The translations under genes and the position numbers were made by a program. From the NCBI GenBank assembly GCA_035626775.1, contig DASPNA010000078.1, forward strand, positions 42,771-106,770: DNA of 64,000 bases. Direction: 5' to 3'. Each line of letters opens with the position of its first letter. Position 1 is the stretch's first letter. The DNA comes from Thermoanaerobaculia bacterium. GTDB taxonomy: Bacteria > Acidobacteriota > Thermoanaerobaculia > Gp7-AA8. This document shows, one piece after another, positions 4,749-60,299 of this stretch. The notes below the pieces were generated by a model. The model was given only the letters and a program-made list of their open reading frames with translations. It did no database searches and was not told the DNA's origin.

Positions 4749-7616
<2,868 letters not shown>

Positions 7617-8564
7617 GGCTCTACTCTCCTCATGCCTTTCGCTGCTGCTTTCGAGAACTGACTACGCAGCAGAGGAGGGCCGTTCGATCACTGCAAAGGA
7701 GATCGGCCGGATGCGCTTCGCGAGCTCTGTTACGAACGCCGCCGGGTTGCCCGATGTCCCTCGATCGAATTTCCGTCCCCTGCCTCCCCCAACACGGCTC
7801 GCGGGCGACCCGTTTTTCGACGGCAGCTCCGCTGAATGGGGGCGCTGACGGCGAATCGCGGATGGCGAGGAGCTAAATCACAACATCACCGAAATGCCGG
7901 CCGGAACGACTTGGTGGAAGGGGTTTGAGGCACAGCAGTCTTGACTTTGACCGTCACCTGATAGCCGCGGATCTGGAGACGAACCGAACGGACCGGGGGA
8001 TGGTTTGCAGGACGTGTATCGTGCTTCAAATCCTTCATAGTCCTCCCTCACTTCCTCGCATTGTCGTTGTGGCGAGTAAGCTACGCCCGCACCTCGGGGA
8101 AGTCAAGCCAACACCCCCAACATCTTGTGGTGCCCGCGATGAAGAACACAACATCCTGCGTAACTATTCGACTTTGCAGTAAGTTACGTCTTTGCGTCCC
8201 GTCGGGTCCGGCAGAAGCTTTTCCGCCTCGGTTCCACCGCTTATCCGCCGGTTCTAGACAGGCTTTCCGCAGGCTTTTGCACAGGGTCGATTATGCAGAT
8301 TTCTTCGGGAATCCACATGTTCTCCACAGGATTCGGACTAGTTATCGTGCCATAAATCAGCAGCGATACAGCGCTGATTTTCATCAGCTTTTTCGTGCTT
8401 TTTCCATGCGTAGGGAGGCGGACTGGACTGAAAGAAAAAGGGCGAAAGAAGGGCGGAATCCGAAAACTGCGGAAAAGTCGGCGAGGGCAGACGCGGGCAC
8501 TACATCTTGTGGGCGAGAGAGGCAGTGCACACACAATGTGGCACGTGGAACATTTTTCCGCCTG

Positions 8565-9524
8565 CTAGTAGTCGCCGCTCGCTCCGGCGCCGCCGAAACT
8601 GCCGCCGCCGGTTGAGGGCCGCGGTTCCGGAGCGTGCGTCGCAGGCTGAAATGTGACGGTCGCGCCGATTTCGGCCAGATCGTCGACCGGTGTGAGCCCG
8701 ATCGGCGTGAGGACGAAGCCGCGCGTGTGGCCGCGCAGGAGACGCGAAATCGCGAACGTCAGCGCGAGGAGCAACGCGCCGGCAAGAGCGAACTTCGCTT
8801 CGAGCGGCGTCGGGATCTTCTCGCCGAAATCGCGCGCGGCGATGGCGAACGCGATGATGGCGGCGAAGAACATCGCGTGATGGCGCTTCGCGACGGCGAG
8901 ACCGATCGCGATCAGGCCAAACACCGCGTAGAGAACGATGGTCACATCACGCCACGCCGCGTCCGCGACGAGGCGTCCCGCAATCGGCATCACCAGCGCG
9001 ATGGCGATCCAGAGCGCCTCGGTCGTCGGGCGACGCCAGGTGCGCAGCAGCGTGAGACACGCGCCGAGCGCGATCAGCAACGCGGCGAGCGTGCCGACAT
9101 CGAATCGTTCTTCGAACCAGAGCATCACGAAGATCGCGGAGACCGCGCCGTACAGCGGATTGCGTACGCGCGCGCCGGCGATCGCCGCTGCGGCCGCGAG
9201 CACCAGCATCGATTCCGGCGTGCCGCTGCGCGGCAGCTCGCTGATGAGCGCAAGCAGACCTCCACCCCACAGCGCCGCTTCGACGCCAGTGAAGAACCAT
9301 CGCCGCGCGCCGATCAGGTATTCGGCCAGCACGATCGAAGCGATACCGGTGATCAGTCCTTCATTGAATGCGTAGAACCCGCCGATGGCGATGCACGTGA
9401 GCACGAAGAAGACGAGCTGCGCGAGGATCCCGTACGTGCGCCACGGCACCTCGAGTTGCGCTTCGGTGACGTGCGGGCGAAGCCGCCTGCGCAGATGGAG
9501 ATTGCGCTCGTGTTGCGCGTTCAT
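8565..9524 (-). CDS. Polytopic membrane protein, with a Gly-rich C-terminus ending in GDY
   Basis: Start ATG 9524 makes an ATGA overlap with the stop of the upstream gene (plus-strand tcat at 9521-9524). At least eight hydrophobic helices. Confidence 0.6.
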   Translation of the reverse strand: MNAQHERNLHLRRRLRPHVTEAQLEVPWRTYGILAQLVFFVLTCIAIGGFYAFNEGLITGIASIVLAEYLIGARRWFFTGVEAALWGGGLLALISELPRSGTPESMLVLAAAAAIAGARVRNPLYGAVSAIFVMLWFEERFDVGTLAALLIALGACLTLLRTWRRPTTEALWIAIALVMPIAGRLVADAAWRDVTIVLYAVFGLIAIGLAVAKRHHAMFFAAIIAFAIAARDFGEKIPTPLEAKFALAGALLLALTFAISRLLRGHTRGFVLTPIGLTPVDDLAEIGATVTFQPATHAPEPRPSTGGGSFGGAGASGDY

Positions 9525-10444
9525 GTGCGCCACTCCCGCACGCGCGAGTGAATCGCGAGGAGGCCGGCGATTGCGCCGACCATGGAAAGCGGGACGAACA
9601 GGAACATCCACTCTTTGTCGTCCACCACTTCATAGAACAGGACGTTGATGGCAAGCACCGCATAGAGGAACGAGTAAAGGACGAACAACTCGCCACGCCT
9701 GCTGATCCCCCAGACCGTGACCATTCCGGCGATGATGAGCACCAGCAGACACCCGATGACGGCGGTGTGGTTGTCGAACATCAGCGCGCACGAGCCGGCG
9801 AACGCAATGTTCGCCGCGAAGTGTTCGAACGACGGCGCGAAATCGCGCGCTTCGCGTTGCGGATCGAACCGCTCATGCGCCGAACGCCACATCAGCAGCA
9901 ACAGCGCGCACGCGAACGCGCGGATCGCATAGTCGGTCGCGGCGCTCGATTCCACGTCGCGCACGCCCAGCCACGCCGTCACCGCCGTGATGGACAGCGA
10001 CAGCACGATGCGCGAGCGGAAGACGTACGCCGTGACCGCGTGCCCGATGGCCGTGATCAGAAAGTGCCGTGGCCACGCGTCGCCGAGCAGATGAAACTGC
10101 GACTCGATGAACGCGACGTCGCCGCTGAGCAGCAGCGCGCCGAGGAGGAGGACGTAGTCGTCGACGATTGAGGCGCGTGCACGACGCCACCAGGCGAACG
10201 CGTAACACGCCGCCGCGGCAACCGCCATCAGCACGGCCAGCGCGAGCGGCCCGATGCGATCGAGGTTGTTCTTCAGCACCAGCCCGGCCGCGGTGGCGAG
10301 CAGCAACGCTCCACCCCACGACAGGACGCGCAGCTCGGGATGGAGCGAGAAGACCTCGCGGCGCTCGCGCGCGATCAGCTCGTTCGTGTTCTTGTCGCCG
10401 AGGATGGGACGGAGCTGTTCCAGCTCCGGCTCGTAGGAGAGCAT
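9521..10444 (-). CDS. Polytopic membrane protein, paralog-like neighbour
   Basis: ORF MLSYEPELEQLRPILGDKNTNELIARERREVF... with multiple TM helices. Confidence 0.6.
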   Translation of the reverse strand: MLSYEPELEQLRPILGDKNTNELIARERREVFSLHPELRVLSWGGALLLATAAGLVLKNNLDRIGPLALAVLMAVAAAACYAFAWWRRARASIVDDYVLLLGALLLSGDVAFIESQFHLLGDAWPRHFLITAIGHAVTAYVFRSRIVLSLSITAVTAWLGVRDVESSAATDYAIRAFACALLLLMWRSAHERFDPQREARDFAPSFEHFAANIAFAGSCALMFDNHTAVIGCLLVLIIAGMVTVWGISRRGELFVLYSFLYAVLAINVLFYEVVDDKEWMFLFVPLSMVGAIAGLLAIHSRVREWRT

Positions 10445-24527: not shown

Positions 24528-25553
24528 TTAGAAGAGTTTGCCTTCGTGCGCGCCGCCGAGCGGGTAGCCGAGATGCGCGTAGGCAGTACGGCTGGCGACG
24601 CGGCCGCGCGGCGTGCGTTGCAGGAAGCCGATCTGGATGAGGTAGGGCTCGTAGAGATCTTCGATCGTGCCGCGATCTTCGCCGATCGACGATGAGAGAG
24701 CGTTCACACCGACCGGGCCGCCGCGGAACCGCTCGATGATCGTCGTGAGCAGCTTGCGATCGATCTCGTCTAGGCCGTACTCATCGACCTCGAGCATGCT
24801 CAGCGCGCCGCGCGCAATCGCCACATCCACTCTCCCCTCATGCCGCACCTCGGCGAAATCACGAACGCGGCGCAGCAGACGATTGGCGATGCGAGGTGTC
24901 CCGCGGGAACGGCGTGCGATCTCCACGGCCGCTTCCGGAGCAACTGCGATGCCGAGGATGTCGGCGGAGCGGCTGACGATGACGGTGAGCGATTCGACGT
25001 CGTAGAAATCGAGGCGATGCACGATGCCGAATCGCGCGCGCAACGGCGCCGTCAATAGTCCCGCTCGCGTCGTTGCGCCAACCAGGGTGAAGCGCGGCAG
25101 CTCGACCTTGAGCGTGCGTGCGGCCGGACCCTGGCCGATGACGACGTCGACGTGAAAGTCTTCCATCGCGGAGTACAGCACTTCTTCGACGATGGGAGGC
25201 AGACGATGGATCTCGTCGATGAACAGCACGTCGCCTGCTTCGAGGTTCGTTACGATCGCGACGAGGTCGCCGGGCTTCTCCAGCGCCGGACCGGAGGTAG
25301 AGCGCATGCTCGCGTTCATCTCGTTCGCGATGATGTTCGCGAGCGTGGTCTTGCCGAGGCCGGGCGGGCCGAAGAGAAGTACGTGATCGAGCGATTCGCT
25401 GCGCTTGCGCGCGGCGCTCAATGAGATCTCGAGGTTCGCTTTGACCTTGTGCTGGCCGATGTACTCGCGCAGAAGGCGCGGCCGCAGCGAGAGCTCGGTC
25501 TGAAGATCTTCCTGGTCTGGTGTCGGAGCGAGGATGCGGTCGTCCGTGGTCAC
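24528..25553 (-). CDS. ruvB: Holliday junction branch-migration helicase
   Basis: [14 protein letters not shown] (Walker A) and DEIHRL, full RuvB length. Confidence 0.95.
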
Positions 25554-39662: not shown

Positions 39663-39748
39663 ATTTCTCTCGACGGTGAGCCCGGTCACGGCTCGCGGTG
39701 GGCTGTCGCCGTAGATTGAGCAGCACCAAAATCGGACACGAGGGGACA

Positions 39749-40450
39749 ATGCGAATCAAACTTCTTTTTGTCGTACTGTTGACGTTCATTGCGGGCAGCG
39801 CGCTCGCCGACAAGCCTTCGCTCGGCGTTGCCGAGTTCAGAAACGACACTTCCGCGGGCTGGTGGAGCGGCGGCGTCGGCCGCGAGCTGGCCGGCATGCT
39901 CACCAATGAGCTGGCGGGTACGGGCAAGTTCAAGATGGTCGAGCGCGAGAAGCTCGATGCGGTTCTCGAAGAGCAGGACCTCGCTGATTCCGGCCGCGTC
40001 AGCAAGAAGACCGGCGCGAAGATCGGCAAGCTGACGGGCGCGCAGTATCTCGTCGTGGCCACGCTCTCCGCGTTCGAAGAGAACGTGTCGGGCGGCGGTG
40101 GCGGCGTGAGCTTCCGCGGCGTCAGCCTCGGCGGCAAAAAGGAAGAGGCGTACCTGGCCGTCGACCTGCGCGTCATCGACACGACCACCGGGGAAGTCGA
40201 GTTCACCCGCAGCGTCGAAGCGCGCGCGACGAGCAAAGGCCTCGCCGTCGGCGTCTACCGTGGCGGCTTCGGCGGCAACCTCGGCAAGTACGAGAAGACC
40301 CCGACCGGCAAAGCGATCCGCGCCGTGATCATGGAGATCAGCGAGTACCTCGCCTGCGCCATGGTCGACCAGGGCGATTGCATGGCCGAGTACCAGGCCA
40401 AAGAATCGTCGCGCCGCGAGAAGACCAAGAAATCGATCAAACTCGACTGA
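39749..40450 (+). CDS. CsgG/LpoB-family lipoprotein (curli-type secretion channel-like)
   Basis: MRIKLLFVVLLTFIAGSALA; PSLGVAEFRNDT...KFKMVEREKLDAVLEEQDLADSGRV...AQYLVVATLSAFE. Confidence 0.7.
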   Translation: MRIKLLFVVLLTFIAGSALADKPSLGVAEFRNDTSAGWWSGGVGRELAGMLTNELAGTGKFKMVEREKLDAVLEEQDLADSGRVSKKTGAKIGKLTGAQYLVVATLSAFEENVSGGGGGVSFRGVSLGGKKEEAYLAVDLRVIDTTTGEVEFTRSVEARATSKGLAVGVYRGGFGGNLGKYEKTPTGKAIRAVIMEISEYLACAMVDQGDCMAEYQAKESSRREKTKKSIKLD

Positions 40451-40478
40451 GTCGGGTCCGCGACAACTGTGGGAGAAA

Positions 40479-40508
40479 GCCGGCCCGAAAAGGGCCGGCT
40501 TTTGTTTT
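40479..40508 (+). terminator. Rho-independent terminator
   Basis: AGCCGGCCC-gaaaa-GGGCCGGCT followed by TTTTGTTTT. Confidence 0.7.
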
Positions 40509-40540
40509 GGGAGGTGGGAAGACGTTTCCGCCTCATTCTC

Positions 40541-40601
40541 GCGTTACTTACGCTTTTCGTCGTTACTTACGCTTGACTTTCGCCCTGTTACCGCCTACAT
40601 T
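40541..40601 (+). promoter_or_regulatory. Putative lexA promoter, with a direct-repeat candidate operator
   Basis: TTGACT (40573-40578), 17 bp, then TACATT (40596-40601). GCGTTACTTACGCTT is repeated at 40541 and 40560, overlapping the -35 box. Confidence 0.4.
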
Positions 40602-40620
40602 GCGTTCCGGAGCGGCGGAA

Positions 40621-41247
40621 ATGAAATACCTGACAGAGCGGCAGCGTGACATTCTCAACTTCATCCGCGACTTCCAGAAAGAGCGGGGGGTGGCGCCAAC
40701 CCACCGCGAAATCTGCGACCACTTCGGGTTCTCCTCCTACGGCACGGTCTACAAACACCTCTCCCTGCTCGAGAAGAAGGGGCTCATCCGTCGCGACTGG
40801 AACCAGAAGCGAGGTGTCGAGCTCGTGGAGCAGGCGGAGAAGCCGGCAGCGATGCGGGAAAGCGCGCCGAACACGCGCGAGCTCCCGCTCTTCGGCTACA
40901 TCGCAGCGGGCCGGCCGCTCGATGTCGAAGTCTCCGCCGAGACGATCACCGTCCCGGAGCACCTCACCACCCGCGGCGAGAACTACGTGCTGAAGGTGCG
41001 TGGCGACTCGATGGTCGAGGACGGGATCCTCGACGGCGATCTGGTGATCATCGCCCGCCGCGAACGCGCCGACAACGGGGAGATGGTCGTCGCGAACGTG
41101 AACGGGGAAGTCACGCTGAAGCGTCTCTATCAGGAAGGCGAAAAGGTCCGGCTGCAGCCGGCCAATTCGATGATGAATCCGATCTACGCCGCTGCCCGTG
41201 ACGTCGCGGTGCAAGGCGTGGTGGTCGGTCTGATGCGCAGGTTCTGA
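40621..41247 (+). CDS. lexA: LexA repressor
   Basis: MKYLTERQRDILNFIRDF...; the AAGRP cleavage-site region; S24 peptidase VRGDSMVEDGILDGDLVII. Confidence 0.9.
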   Translation: MKYLTERQRDILNFIRDFQKERGVAPTHREICDHFGFSSYGTVYKHLSLLEKKGLIRRDWNQKRGVELVEQAEKPAAMRESAPNTRELPLFGYIAAGRPLDVEVSAETITVPEHLTTRGENYVLKVRGDSMVEDGILDGDLVIIARRERADNGEMVVANVNGEVTLKRLYQEGEKVRLQPANSMMNPIYAAARDVAVQGVVVGLMRRF

Positions 41248-41292
41248 GTCGGTTCTTGTCGAAACAGCGGTTTGCAAAAGGAAGAGGAAGCC

Positions 41293-41742
41293 ATGGATCT
41301 CGTATTGAAACTCCGTGAAATCCGGAAGCTCCGCGGGCTGAGCCAGAAGGATGTTGCCCGCCTCTCCGGCGTCGGAGAGAAAACGATCAGCTCATTCGAA
41401 ACGGGCCAGCGCATCGGATCGCTGAAGCTCGCGCAACTCAAGAGAATGCTCGGCGTGTACGGCTTGACCGAGGCCGAGTTCTTCGGCGGAACGGTGGAAC
41501 GCCAGATTGCGCCGTGGGAGCTCGATGACGAGGAGAACGCAGCACACCGCCTCGTCGAAGAGCTTCGCGTACTTCCGCGGCCGGTGCAGAAGGCGATGGT
41601 CGCAAAGTTCGAGTTGATGCTGGAGACCGCGACCGCCGTCGATCAGGTCAAGCGCGCGGACCAGGTCAAACGGATCAGCGAAAAGCGGCCGTCATACATG
41701 CGCGAAGAGCCCGACTGGCACATGCTGACGTCGCGCAACTGA
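41293..41742 (+). CDS. XRE-family HTH transcriptional regulator
   Basis: LRGLSQKDVARLSGVGEKTISSFETGQ; RBS GGAAGAGGAAG precedes the ATG. Confidence 0.7.
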   Translation: MDLVLKLREIRKLRGLSQKDVARLSGVGEKTISSFETGQRIGSLKLAQLKRMLGVYGLTEAEFFGGTVERQIAPWELDDEENAAHRLVEELRVLPRPVQKAMVAKFELMLETATAVDQVKRADQVKRISEKRPSYMREEPDWHMLTSRN

Positions 41743-59852: not shown

Positions 59853-60299
59853 TCATTTCAACCGGTGTAACTCCTTTACGAACGCATCGACGTCCTCGAA
59901 CCGGCGATACACCGATGCGAATCGGACGTACGCGACCGGGTCGAGATCGCGCAATCGATCCATGACCAGCGTGCCGAGCGCCTGCGACGAGATCTCGCGC
60001 TCGGAGGTGTCGGACATGGCCGACTCGATGTTGTCTGCGATGCGTTCGAGCTCCGCCTGCGGCACGGGCCGTTTGCGGCACGCGATCTGGAGCCCACGCA
60101 TGAGCTTATTACGCTCGTAGGCCTCGCGGCGTTGATCGCGCTTCACGACCTGGAACGTCGGCAGCTCGATCTTCTCGTAACTGGTGAAGCGGCGCTCGCA
60201 GCGGGCGCACTCGCGCCGGCGACGGATGACCTCTCCTTCGCGCCCCTCGCGCGAGTCCACCACGCGGTCTTCGAGATTCCCGCAGAACGGGCACCGCAT
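59853..60299 (-). CDS. nrdR: Transcriptional repressor NrdR
   Basis: MRCPFCG...CARCERRFTSYE zinc ribbon plus an ATP-cone. Confidence 0.9.
   Translation of the reverse strand: MRCPFCGNLEDRVVDSREGREGEVIRRRRECARCERRFTSYEKIELPTFQVVKRDQRREAYERNKLMRGLQIACRKRPVPQAELERIADNIESAMSDTSEREISSQALGTLVMDRLRDLDPVAYVRFASVYRRFEDVDAFVKELHRLK

Follow-up and report, generated by a model that had tools for sequence, protein, structure and literature searches.

The window, a 64,000-nucleotide stretch of Thermoanaerobaculia DNA, carries a lexA gene followed 46 nt downstream by an apparently co-transcribed gene for an XRE-family regulator (xre). The features of the locus, and of the nrdJ upstream region discussed below, are collected in Table 1. 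The intergenic region before lexA (40451-40620) follows a csgG-like gene, whose terminator-like hairpin is a perfect 11-nt inverted repeat (I1, arms 40476-86 and 40492-502) and leads into the T-run TTTTGTTTT. A promoter scan of positions 40300-41400 detected TTGACT-17-TACATT as the sole sigma-70-like site, where 0.1 was expected by chance. This promoter lies at a distance of 19 nt from lexA.

Table 1. Features of the lexA-xre locus and of other regions of the window
Feature	Position	Strand	Remarks
csgG-like gene	39698-40450		CsgG Pfam match; 5' neighbor of the lexA region
Terminator-like hairpin and T-run of csgG-like gene	40476-40509	+	Upstream limit of the lexA control region
Distal triplet of units	40524-40554	+	GTTTCCGCC 40524-32, ATTCTCGCG 40535-43, ACTTACGCT 40546-54
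14-mer repeat pair CGTTACTTACGCTT	40542-40555 and 40561-40574	+	Exact; 19 bp start to start
Unit B ACTTACGCT	40565-40573	+	Abuts -35; inside second 14-mer copy
-35 hexamer TTGACT	40573-40578	+	Promoter scan; identical in 81/81 orthologous promoters
Unit C ACTTTCGCC	40576-40584	+	Overlaps 3' half of -35 and start of spacer
Unit D GTTACCGCC	40587-40595	+	Fills spacer as far as -10
-10 hexamer TACATT	40596-40601	+	Promoter scan
Inverted unit-like word GGCGGAAA	40614-40621	+	Overlaps ribosome-binding region and start codon
lexA coding sequence	40621-41247	+	208 aa plus stop; ATG at 40621
xre (XRE-family, HTH_3)	41293-41742	+	Pfam HTH_3 E = 7.8e-11; apparently co-transcribed with lexA
ruvB	24528-25553	-	No promoter region of its own; overlaps end of pilS-like sensor kinase gene
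nrdR	59853-60299	-	NrdR encoded in the same window
nrdJ array box 1 TTTTCCGCC	8219-27	+	11-bp head-to-tail array
nrdJ array box 2 GGTTCCACC	8230-38	+	11-bp head-to-tail array
nrdJ array box 3 TTATCCGCC	8241-49	+	11-bp head-to-tail array
nrdJ array box 4 TTCTAGACA	8252-60	+	11-bp head-to-tail array
nrdJ array box 5 CTTTCCGCA	8263-71	+	11-bp head-to-tail array
nrdJ array box 6 TTTTGCACA	8275-83	+	11-bp head-to-tail array
Further nrdJ-region sites listed with the array	8468-8476 and 8440-8459	-	
nrdJ-leader inverted repeat	8188-8183 and 8164-8159	-	CGTAAC and GTTACG; not conserved as a pair
NrdR-like box pairs and near-palindrome TGTTCCACGTGCCACA	8526-8552, about 8490-8510, 8120-8160	-	Upstream of nrdJ
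nrdJ leader features	7886-8038 and 7611-7795	-	

The identification of the downstream gene as lexA in an earlier note on this DNA was confirmed. The product scored 204 bits against the NCBIfam equivalog TIGR00498 (cut-off 111), and its full length could be aligned with two solved structures of LexA, 3k2z (Thermotoga) and 3jso (E. coli), an alignment in which the AAG cleavage site, GDSM, and KRL are all retained. More than 7600 LexA homologues were found, the best being named LexA proteins of Thermoanaerobaculia, Acidobacteriota, and the nearest being 86-94% identical. The open reading frame is a bona fide, full-length lexA and, as judged from these alignments, cleavage-competent.

The same note had reported a 15-nt word repeated directly at a distance of 19-21 bp across the lexA -35 hexamer. 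The repeat is real but was mis-parsed. An exact 14-mer is present twice, the second copy ending one base into the TTGACT hexamer, whereas the 15-mer versions do not agree at the initial base (G versus T); start to start the copies are 19 bp apart, not 19-21 bp. No further copy occurs in the 64-kb window, other matches requiring 3 mismatches, which is chance level. Among 80 Thermoanaerobaculia species the proximal copy alone is kept and the distal copy is variable, so that the pair itself is species-specific. The conserved unit is shorter than the proposed operator word, about 9 nt, and its spacing is exactly 11 bp. The two 14-mers contain the last unit of a first triplet and the first unit of a second.

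This parsing comes from an alignment of the lexA loci of those 80 species (L001-L080; LexA 82-93% identical) with the window, giving 81 promoters. The sequence CTTGACTT was present exactly once in each, at the lexA promoter. A 37-nt core, ACTTACGC-TTGACT-TTCGCC-nnn-TTACCGCC-TAYATT (also written ACTTACGC-TTGACTTTCGCC-nnn-TTACCGCC-TAYATT), is near-invariant. Its consensus, ACTTACGCTTGACTTTCGCCnnnTTACCGCCTAYATT, aligns without gaps in the 81 species with a mean pairwise identity of 0.89, compared with 0.31 for the 45 nt immediately 5' of the core and 0.42-0.50 for the 60 nt preceding each of five further conserved genes of the same loci, which served as controls. Such figures point to very strong purifying selection on the lexA promoter repeats.

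The core holds three head-to-tail units, B, C, and D, whose CGC cores are separated by 11 bp from B to C and again by 11 bp from C to D, exactly and in all species. Unit B reads ACTTACGCT in 57 of the 81 promoters and TT.CGC in 76; unit C reads ACTTTCGCC in 54 and TT.CGC in 80. Unit D takes the form G/ATTACCGCC, with TTACCGCC in 76 promoters. Free variation is limited to 3-4 nt between units C and D. The -10 hexamer itself varies (TACATT in 47 promoters, TATATT in 19, CATATT in 11). Beyond the hexamers, 14 of the 17 spacer positions and the 8 bases upstream of the -35 hexamer are near-invariant. A conserved spacer is not needed by RNA polymerase, and its conservation here points to a protein sitting on the promoter.

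Upstream of B-C-D, one to five further units are added at steps of about 10 bp. The unit consensus is ACTTWCGCC, about 9 nt, the upstream units reading aCTT(a/t)CGCC. When unit-like words were counted as TTnCGC or TTnnCGC, they clustered 9-11 bp (73 words), 19-21 bp (34), and 28-31 bp (16) before unit B, with further clusters at about 40 and 50 bp. The upstream spacing is variable (9, 10, or 11 bp), and the units are in phase in most species despite differing in exact sequence. Steps of about 10 bp would place all units on roughly one face of the helix. TTWCGC pairs were present in 68 of the 81 lexA promoters, against about 3 expected. In the window the CGC trinucleotides start at 40529, 40540, and 40551 and at 40570, 40581, and 40592, forming two triplets of 11-bp period 19 bp apart, the last unit of the distal triplet lying within the first 14-mer copy.

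Inverted copies of the unit are sporadic only (L005, L006, L017, and L032; for example, GGCGTAAGCCTTACGCC in L006). In the window one such word, GGCGGAAA, pairs with 40525-32 as inverted repeat I3. Many relatives have GAGGCGGTAATG at this position. It is missing in eight, those with an almost leaderless lexA, and is thus not an obligatory part of the array. In these eight of the 81 species (L003, L005, L017, L021, L023, L025, L026, and L076) the lexA ATG lies 8-10 nt past the -10 hexamer, so that the transcript would have no leader or almost none. The remaining species have 18-26 nt between the -10 hexamer and the ATG, with a GAGG ribosome-binding site.

The array corresponds to no described LexA consensus. 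Eight published LexA-box words were run on the 81 lexA promoters, namely GTTC-N7-GTTC, GAAC-N4-GTTC, CTGT-N8-ACAG, TGTTC-N4-GAACA, and the cyanobacterial, Bdellovibrio, Leptospira, and Geobacter types. Each was found in 0-1 of the 81 promoters, which is chance level; specifically, GTTC-N7-GTTC occurred in one promoter (1.0 expected) and TGTTC-N4-GAACA in none. A full-text literature search found no paper on the LexA motif of the Thermoanaerobaculia.

The closest known parallel in geometry is the LexA box of the Alphaproteobacteria, for which direct repeats with an 11-bp period are established (PMC4951493). Acidobacterium capsulatum, too, has a box of this GTTC-N7-GTTC type, its lexA being a lateral acquisition from Alphaproteobacteria (Mazon et al. 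2006). The arrays described here share with these boxes the direct repeats, the 11-bp period, and the location within the lexA promoter, and in both cases the binder is presumed to be a dimer of LexA whose DNA-binding domains are flexibly tethered. However, the word is ACTTWCGCC instead of GTTC, and three invariant units with a variable upstream array replace one or two pairs. The tandem LexA sites of Verrucomicrobia offer a second parallel, with several adjacent sites in the lexA-operon promoter and stepwise occupancy (PMC4951493). Nevertheless, those sites are palindromes (TGTTC-N4-GAACA, paired 2 bp apart), and that word is missing here.

Searches for the array elsewhere returned little. 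A three-unit pattern scan of 667 kb of Thermoanaerobaculia DNA detected no array of three or more units outside lexA promoters. Scoring of unit chains with a position weight matrix (PWM) over about 870 kb gave the array upstream of nrdJ as the sole notable non-lexA match, and in the same 870 kb, a sample that lacks recA, no credible unit pair was present besides that region. In Acidobacteria recA is not under LexA control (PMC4951493). A tblastn search of all fetched loci with E. coli RecA and DnaA gave no match, and an exact-protein look-up of about 10 kb beyond the window revealed no SOS gene. The only classic SOS gene noticed in the scanned sample was an operon-internal ruvB. In the window ruvB stands within a row of type IV pilus genes, an order that is repeated in L448 and L450.

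Wider scans gave no further operator. A metagenome scan for three TTWCGCC units with 3-4 nt gaps gave at least 120 matches; those read were unrelated 10-11-bp tandem repeats, none of them with lexA or xre, which we take to be iterons or integrase arm sites. A viral scan gave no match to a B-C-D-like pattern. Two TTACGCC units gave at least 120 viral matches, taken for chance, and the C-D pattern likewise gave at least 120, with one conserved phage sequence dominating among those listed.

The nrdJ upstream region was compared in eight species, the window and seven orthologous loci (L444-L450, around 9230-9600). Although the PWM derived from the lexA units ranked these regions best among non-lexA arrays, the nrdJ array was rejected as a second LexA site. 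Its boxes prefer TTTTCCRCM where the lexA units prefer ACTTWCGCC. In seven of the eight species the last box of the array is a perfect TTWTNCACA; the eighth (L450) has a one-mismatch box there and a perfect one nearby, so that every species has at least one perfect DnaA box upstream of nrdJ. DnaA boxes with up to one mismatch are about 20-fold enriched there. The 11-bp register is kept across the eight species, with fewer units in one or two. The perfect terminal boxes, the enrichment, and the different unit preference lead us to read these units as DnaA boxes, and the array looks like an oriC-style low-affinity DnaA array controlling the class II ribonucleotide reductase gene. A seventh, separate DnaA-box-like 9-mer, TTTTCCGCA, lies on the opposite strand to the array.

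The most likely interpretation of the row of phased repeats at lexA is that it is a candidate SOS (LexA) operator of a new kind, which most likely represses lexA and xre through promoter occlusion. Direct repeats, strong conservation, and the absence of any known LexA-box word make a lineage-specific direct-repeat operator the most economical reading. To this extent the earlier proposal of a lineage-specific direct-repeat SOS box is upheld, with the exception of the word put forward for it. We infer that the lexA-xre operon is transcribed from the sigma-70-type promoter embedded in the head-to-tail units and that a repressor would bind these units cooperatively, blocking RNA polymerase. If the repressor is LexA, its winged-helix domains would bind direct, not inverted, repeats, as in the Alphaproteobacteria, and DNA damage would free the promoter by way of RecA-stimulated LexA self-cleavage.

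LexA acting on its own gene is the most probable binder among the candidates, at about even odds. Autoregulation of lexA is, to our knowledge, nearly universal among studied bacteria. If LexA is autoregulatory here, the units are the only candidate site, since no known box word is enriched in these promoters. Indeed, apart from the polymerase-binding sequences, they are the only conserved sequence in the lexA promoter, and they overlap the core promoter of a genuine lexA gene at a position kept in 81/81 species. The LexA recognition helix, SSYGTVYKHLSLLE, is at least 97% invariant within the clade and unlike that of E. coli LexA; judged by eye, the recognition region is presumably nearer to the Gram-positive than to the alphaproteobacterial type. 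Several points tell against LexA. In the roughly 870 kb scanned, where ruvB was the only classic SOS gene noticed, no second SOS promoter carried the motif. Rows of 4-8 head-to-tail sites with an 11-bp period typify DnaA more than they do any LexA operator so far described, and the spacing of the upstream units is uneven. It is conceivable, but doubtful, that SOS control here follows a mode not described before, in which LexA, alone or with the XRE protein, polymerizes head to tail along the helically phased 4-8 ACTTWCGCC units over its own promoter, more like an initiator on iterons than a dimer on a palindrome, or else that ATP-DnaA directly represses lexA.

An operator of the co-transcribed XRE protein, acting alone or with LexA, is an unlikely but serious alternative, under which the operon would be XRE-autoregulated and the LexA sites would lie elsewhere. 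The location of the array fits it, as the promoter is that of the regulator's own operon, and xre is found directly 3' of lexA in 80/80 related loci, including those with rearranged flanks, the gap between the two genes ranging from 11 to 93 nt. The XRE proteins of loci L001-L080 are 140-151 residues long, with a near-invariant helix-turn-helix and a helical C-terminal half. The motif is near-invariant too, but so is the DNA-binding domain of LexA, and comparing the conservation of the two domains did not discriminate between the proteins. Both the XRE family and the motif are, as far as sampled, confined to the clade; the family is small (about 1700 clusters, the named ones from Thermoanaerobaculia), and curated families gave no match for the XRE protein beyond the HTH_3 domain.

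A structural model of the XRE protein (pLDDT 72) consists of the helix-turn-helix, a low-confidence segment at residues 70-77, and a helical hairpin. In this model the segment may be a flexible linker and the hairpin a possible oligomerization module. Fold searches returned the DNA-damage repressor DdrO as well as HipB and SinR. However, these matches are weak (E about 2e-3) and generic to the helix-turn-helix, which alone superposes well (33% identity to DdrO over 66-67 residues); the C-terminal halves do not superpose on those of DdrO and SinR (r.m.s.d. about 9 Å). In a further difference from the DdrO system, no IrrE-like protease gene was seen beside xre here. The DdrO operator is a 17-bp palindrome. 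XRE dimers usually bind inverted repeats, whereas the units here are direct repeats, although SinR can bind direct repeats. No xre-specific site was found between lexA and xre, and the lexA promoter would be left with no conserved LexA site, a rare situation. Whichever protein binds the array, the strict lexA-xre linkage suggests that the SOS circuit of this clade may have in xre a second component, as yet unstudied.

We consider it improbable that the units are weak DnaA boxes and that ATP-DnaA oligomers coat the lexA promoter, tying the SOS set-point to replication initiation. The nrdJ array, with the same geometry and shared units, makes DnaA a possible, although less likely, binder at lexA. 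Low-affinity DnaA arrays, as known from E. coli oriC, are marked by head-to-tail 9-mers with 2-bp gaps, a geometry with an 11-bp period that units B, C, and D share. The likeness extends to sequence: the weak boxes TTTTCCGCC and TTATCCGCC of the clade's nrdJ array end in CCGCC, as do unit D and some upstream lexA units, and the word TTTCCGCC, found among the upstream lexA units, recurs among the weak boxes of that array. There is also precedent, since DnaA co-represses the SOS genes uvrB, recN, and dinJ in E. coli and nrd is a classical target of DnaA repression (PMC6015884). Nevertheless, TTWTNCACA boxes with up to one mismatch are at background in the 81 lexA promoters (4 in 33 kb, or 0.12 per kb), and each of units B, C, and D departs from this consensus at 4 positions. 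Unlike the low-affinity arrays of oriC and nrd promoters, the lexA array has no CAC core and no near-consensus anchor box, and its units diverge from the nrdJ boxes at three positions, 1, 2, and 5, preferring A, C, and A/T there to the T, T, and C of nrdJ.

It is very improbable that there is no operator at all, the conservation reflecting promoter strength and the 14-mer pair a recent neutral local duplication: the distal 14-mer is indeed unconserved in relatives, and conservation of the two hexamers is expected anyway, but the near-invariant positions in the spacer and 5' of the -35 hexamer form a repeating word, the upstream units recur in phase where their exact sequences differ, and the control promoters have no comparable conservation.

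Returning to LexA as the binder, the units would then constitute a variant direct-repeat LexA box of unusual multi-unit architecture, in a class for which no SOS box is known. They would also be the second instance, independent of the first, in which LexA recognizes direct repeats, with a bearing on the evolution of LexA specificity. The LexA-binding motif of a lineage allows damage-inducible genes to be predicted by genome scan, and for the Thermoanaerobaculia, which are a widespread class of Acidobacteriota with hardly any cultured members, the ACTTWCGCC units give a concrete, testable candidate. Repression of lexA by ATP-DnaA, if true, would mean that the SOS threshold is coupled to replication initiation across a whole bacterial class.

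At least 22 of the 80 related species have an IS1-family-like mobile element inserted directly 5' of the lexA repeat array (for example, L007 668-3919, L014 2832-3932, L020 2160-3920, and L078 771-3921, with at least 18 more); none is present in the window. Terminal inverted repeats of about 39 nt (GGTAGTGGTCTAGTTTGA...GTTGTAACA) bound the element, which carries small XRE genes as cargo. It always lies 50-51 or 60-63 nt from the -35 hexamer (72 nt in one locus), and its 8-bp target duplications vary by species (AGAAATTC in L007, TAGGGGTA in L078). This pattern suggests repeated independent insertion at a preferred site beside the operator. An Rfam search of eight lexA loci gave no RNA family match, either at the IS-like element or close to the lexA promoter.

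The region upstream of nrdJ holds other elements besides the DnaA array. An inverted repeat in the nrdJ leader had been proposed as a relative of the lexA repeat. This does not hold, as the left arm is unconserved and the first of two NrdR-like boxes overlaps the right one, ACTTACGCA; the word was rejected as LexA-related. Two pairs of NrdR-like boxes (CCAC-N8-GTGG type) and the conserved near-palindrome TGTTCCACGTGCCACA are present upstream of nrdJ. With the NrdR-like boxes, the DnaA array, and an nrdR gene in the same window, nrdJ is apparently controlled by at least two regulators, NrdR and DnaA.

A conserved 50-residue open reading frame (MKDLKH...) lies between the proximal nrdJ promoter and nrdJ. 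An Rfam search of the nrdJ upstream region gave no match. In six of the eight species nrdJ is preceded by a long conserved helix (GGGGGAGGTAGGGGACGGAAGTTCGATC ... GATCGAAC.GCCCTCCTCTAC); in five of these a T-run comes next. Among the six sequences only 4 of the 43 base pairs of the helix covary. The helix is possibly an attenuator or a riboswitch-like leader. The nrdJ ribosome-binding site, GAGGAGAG, has its complement in CCTCCTCT.
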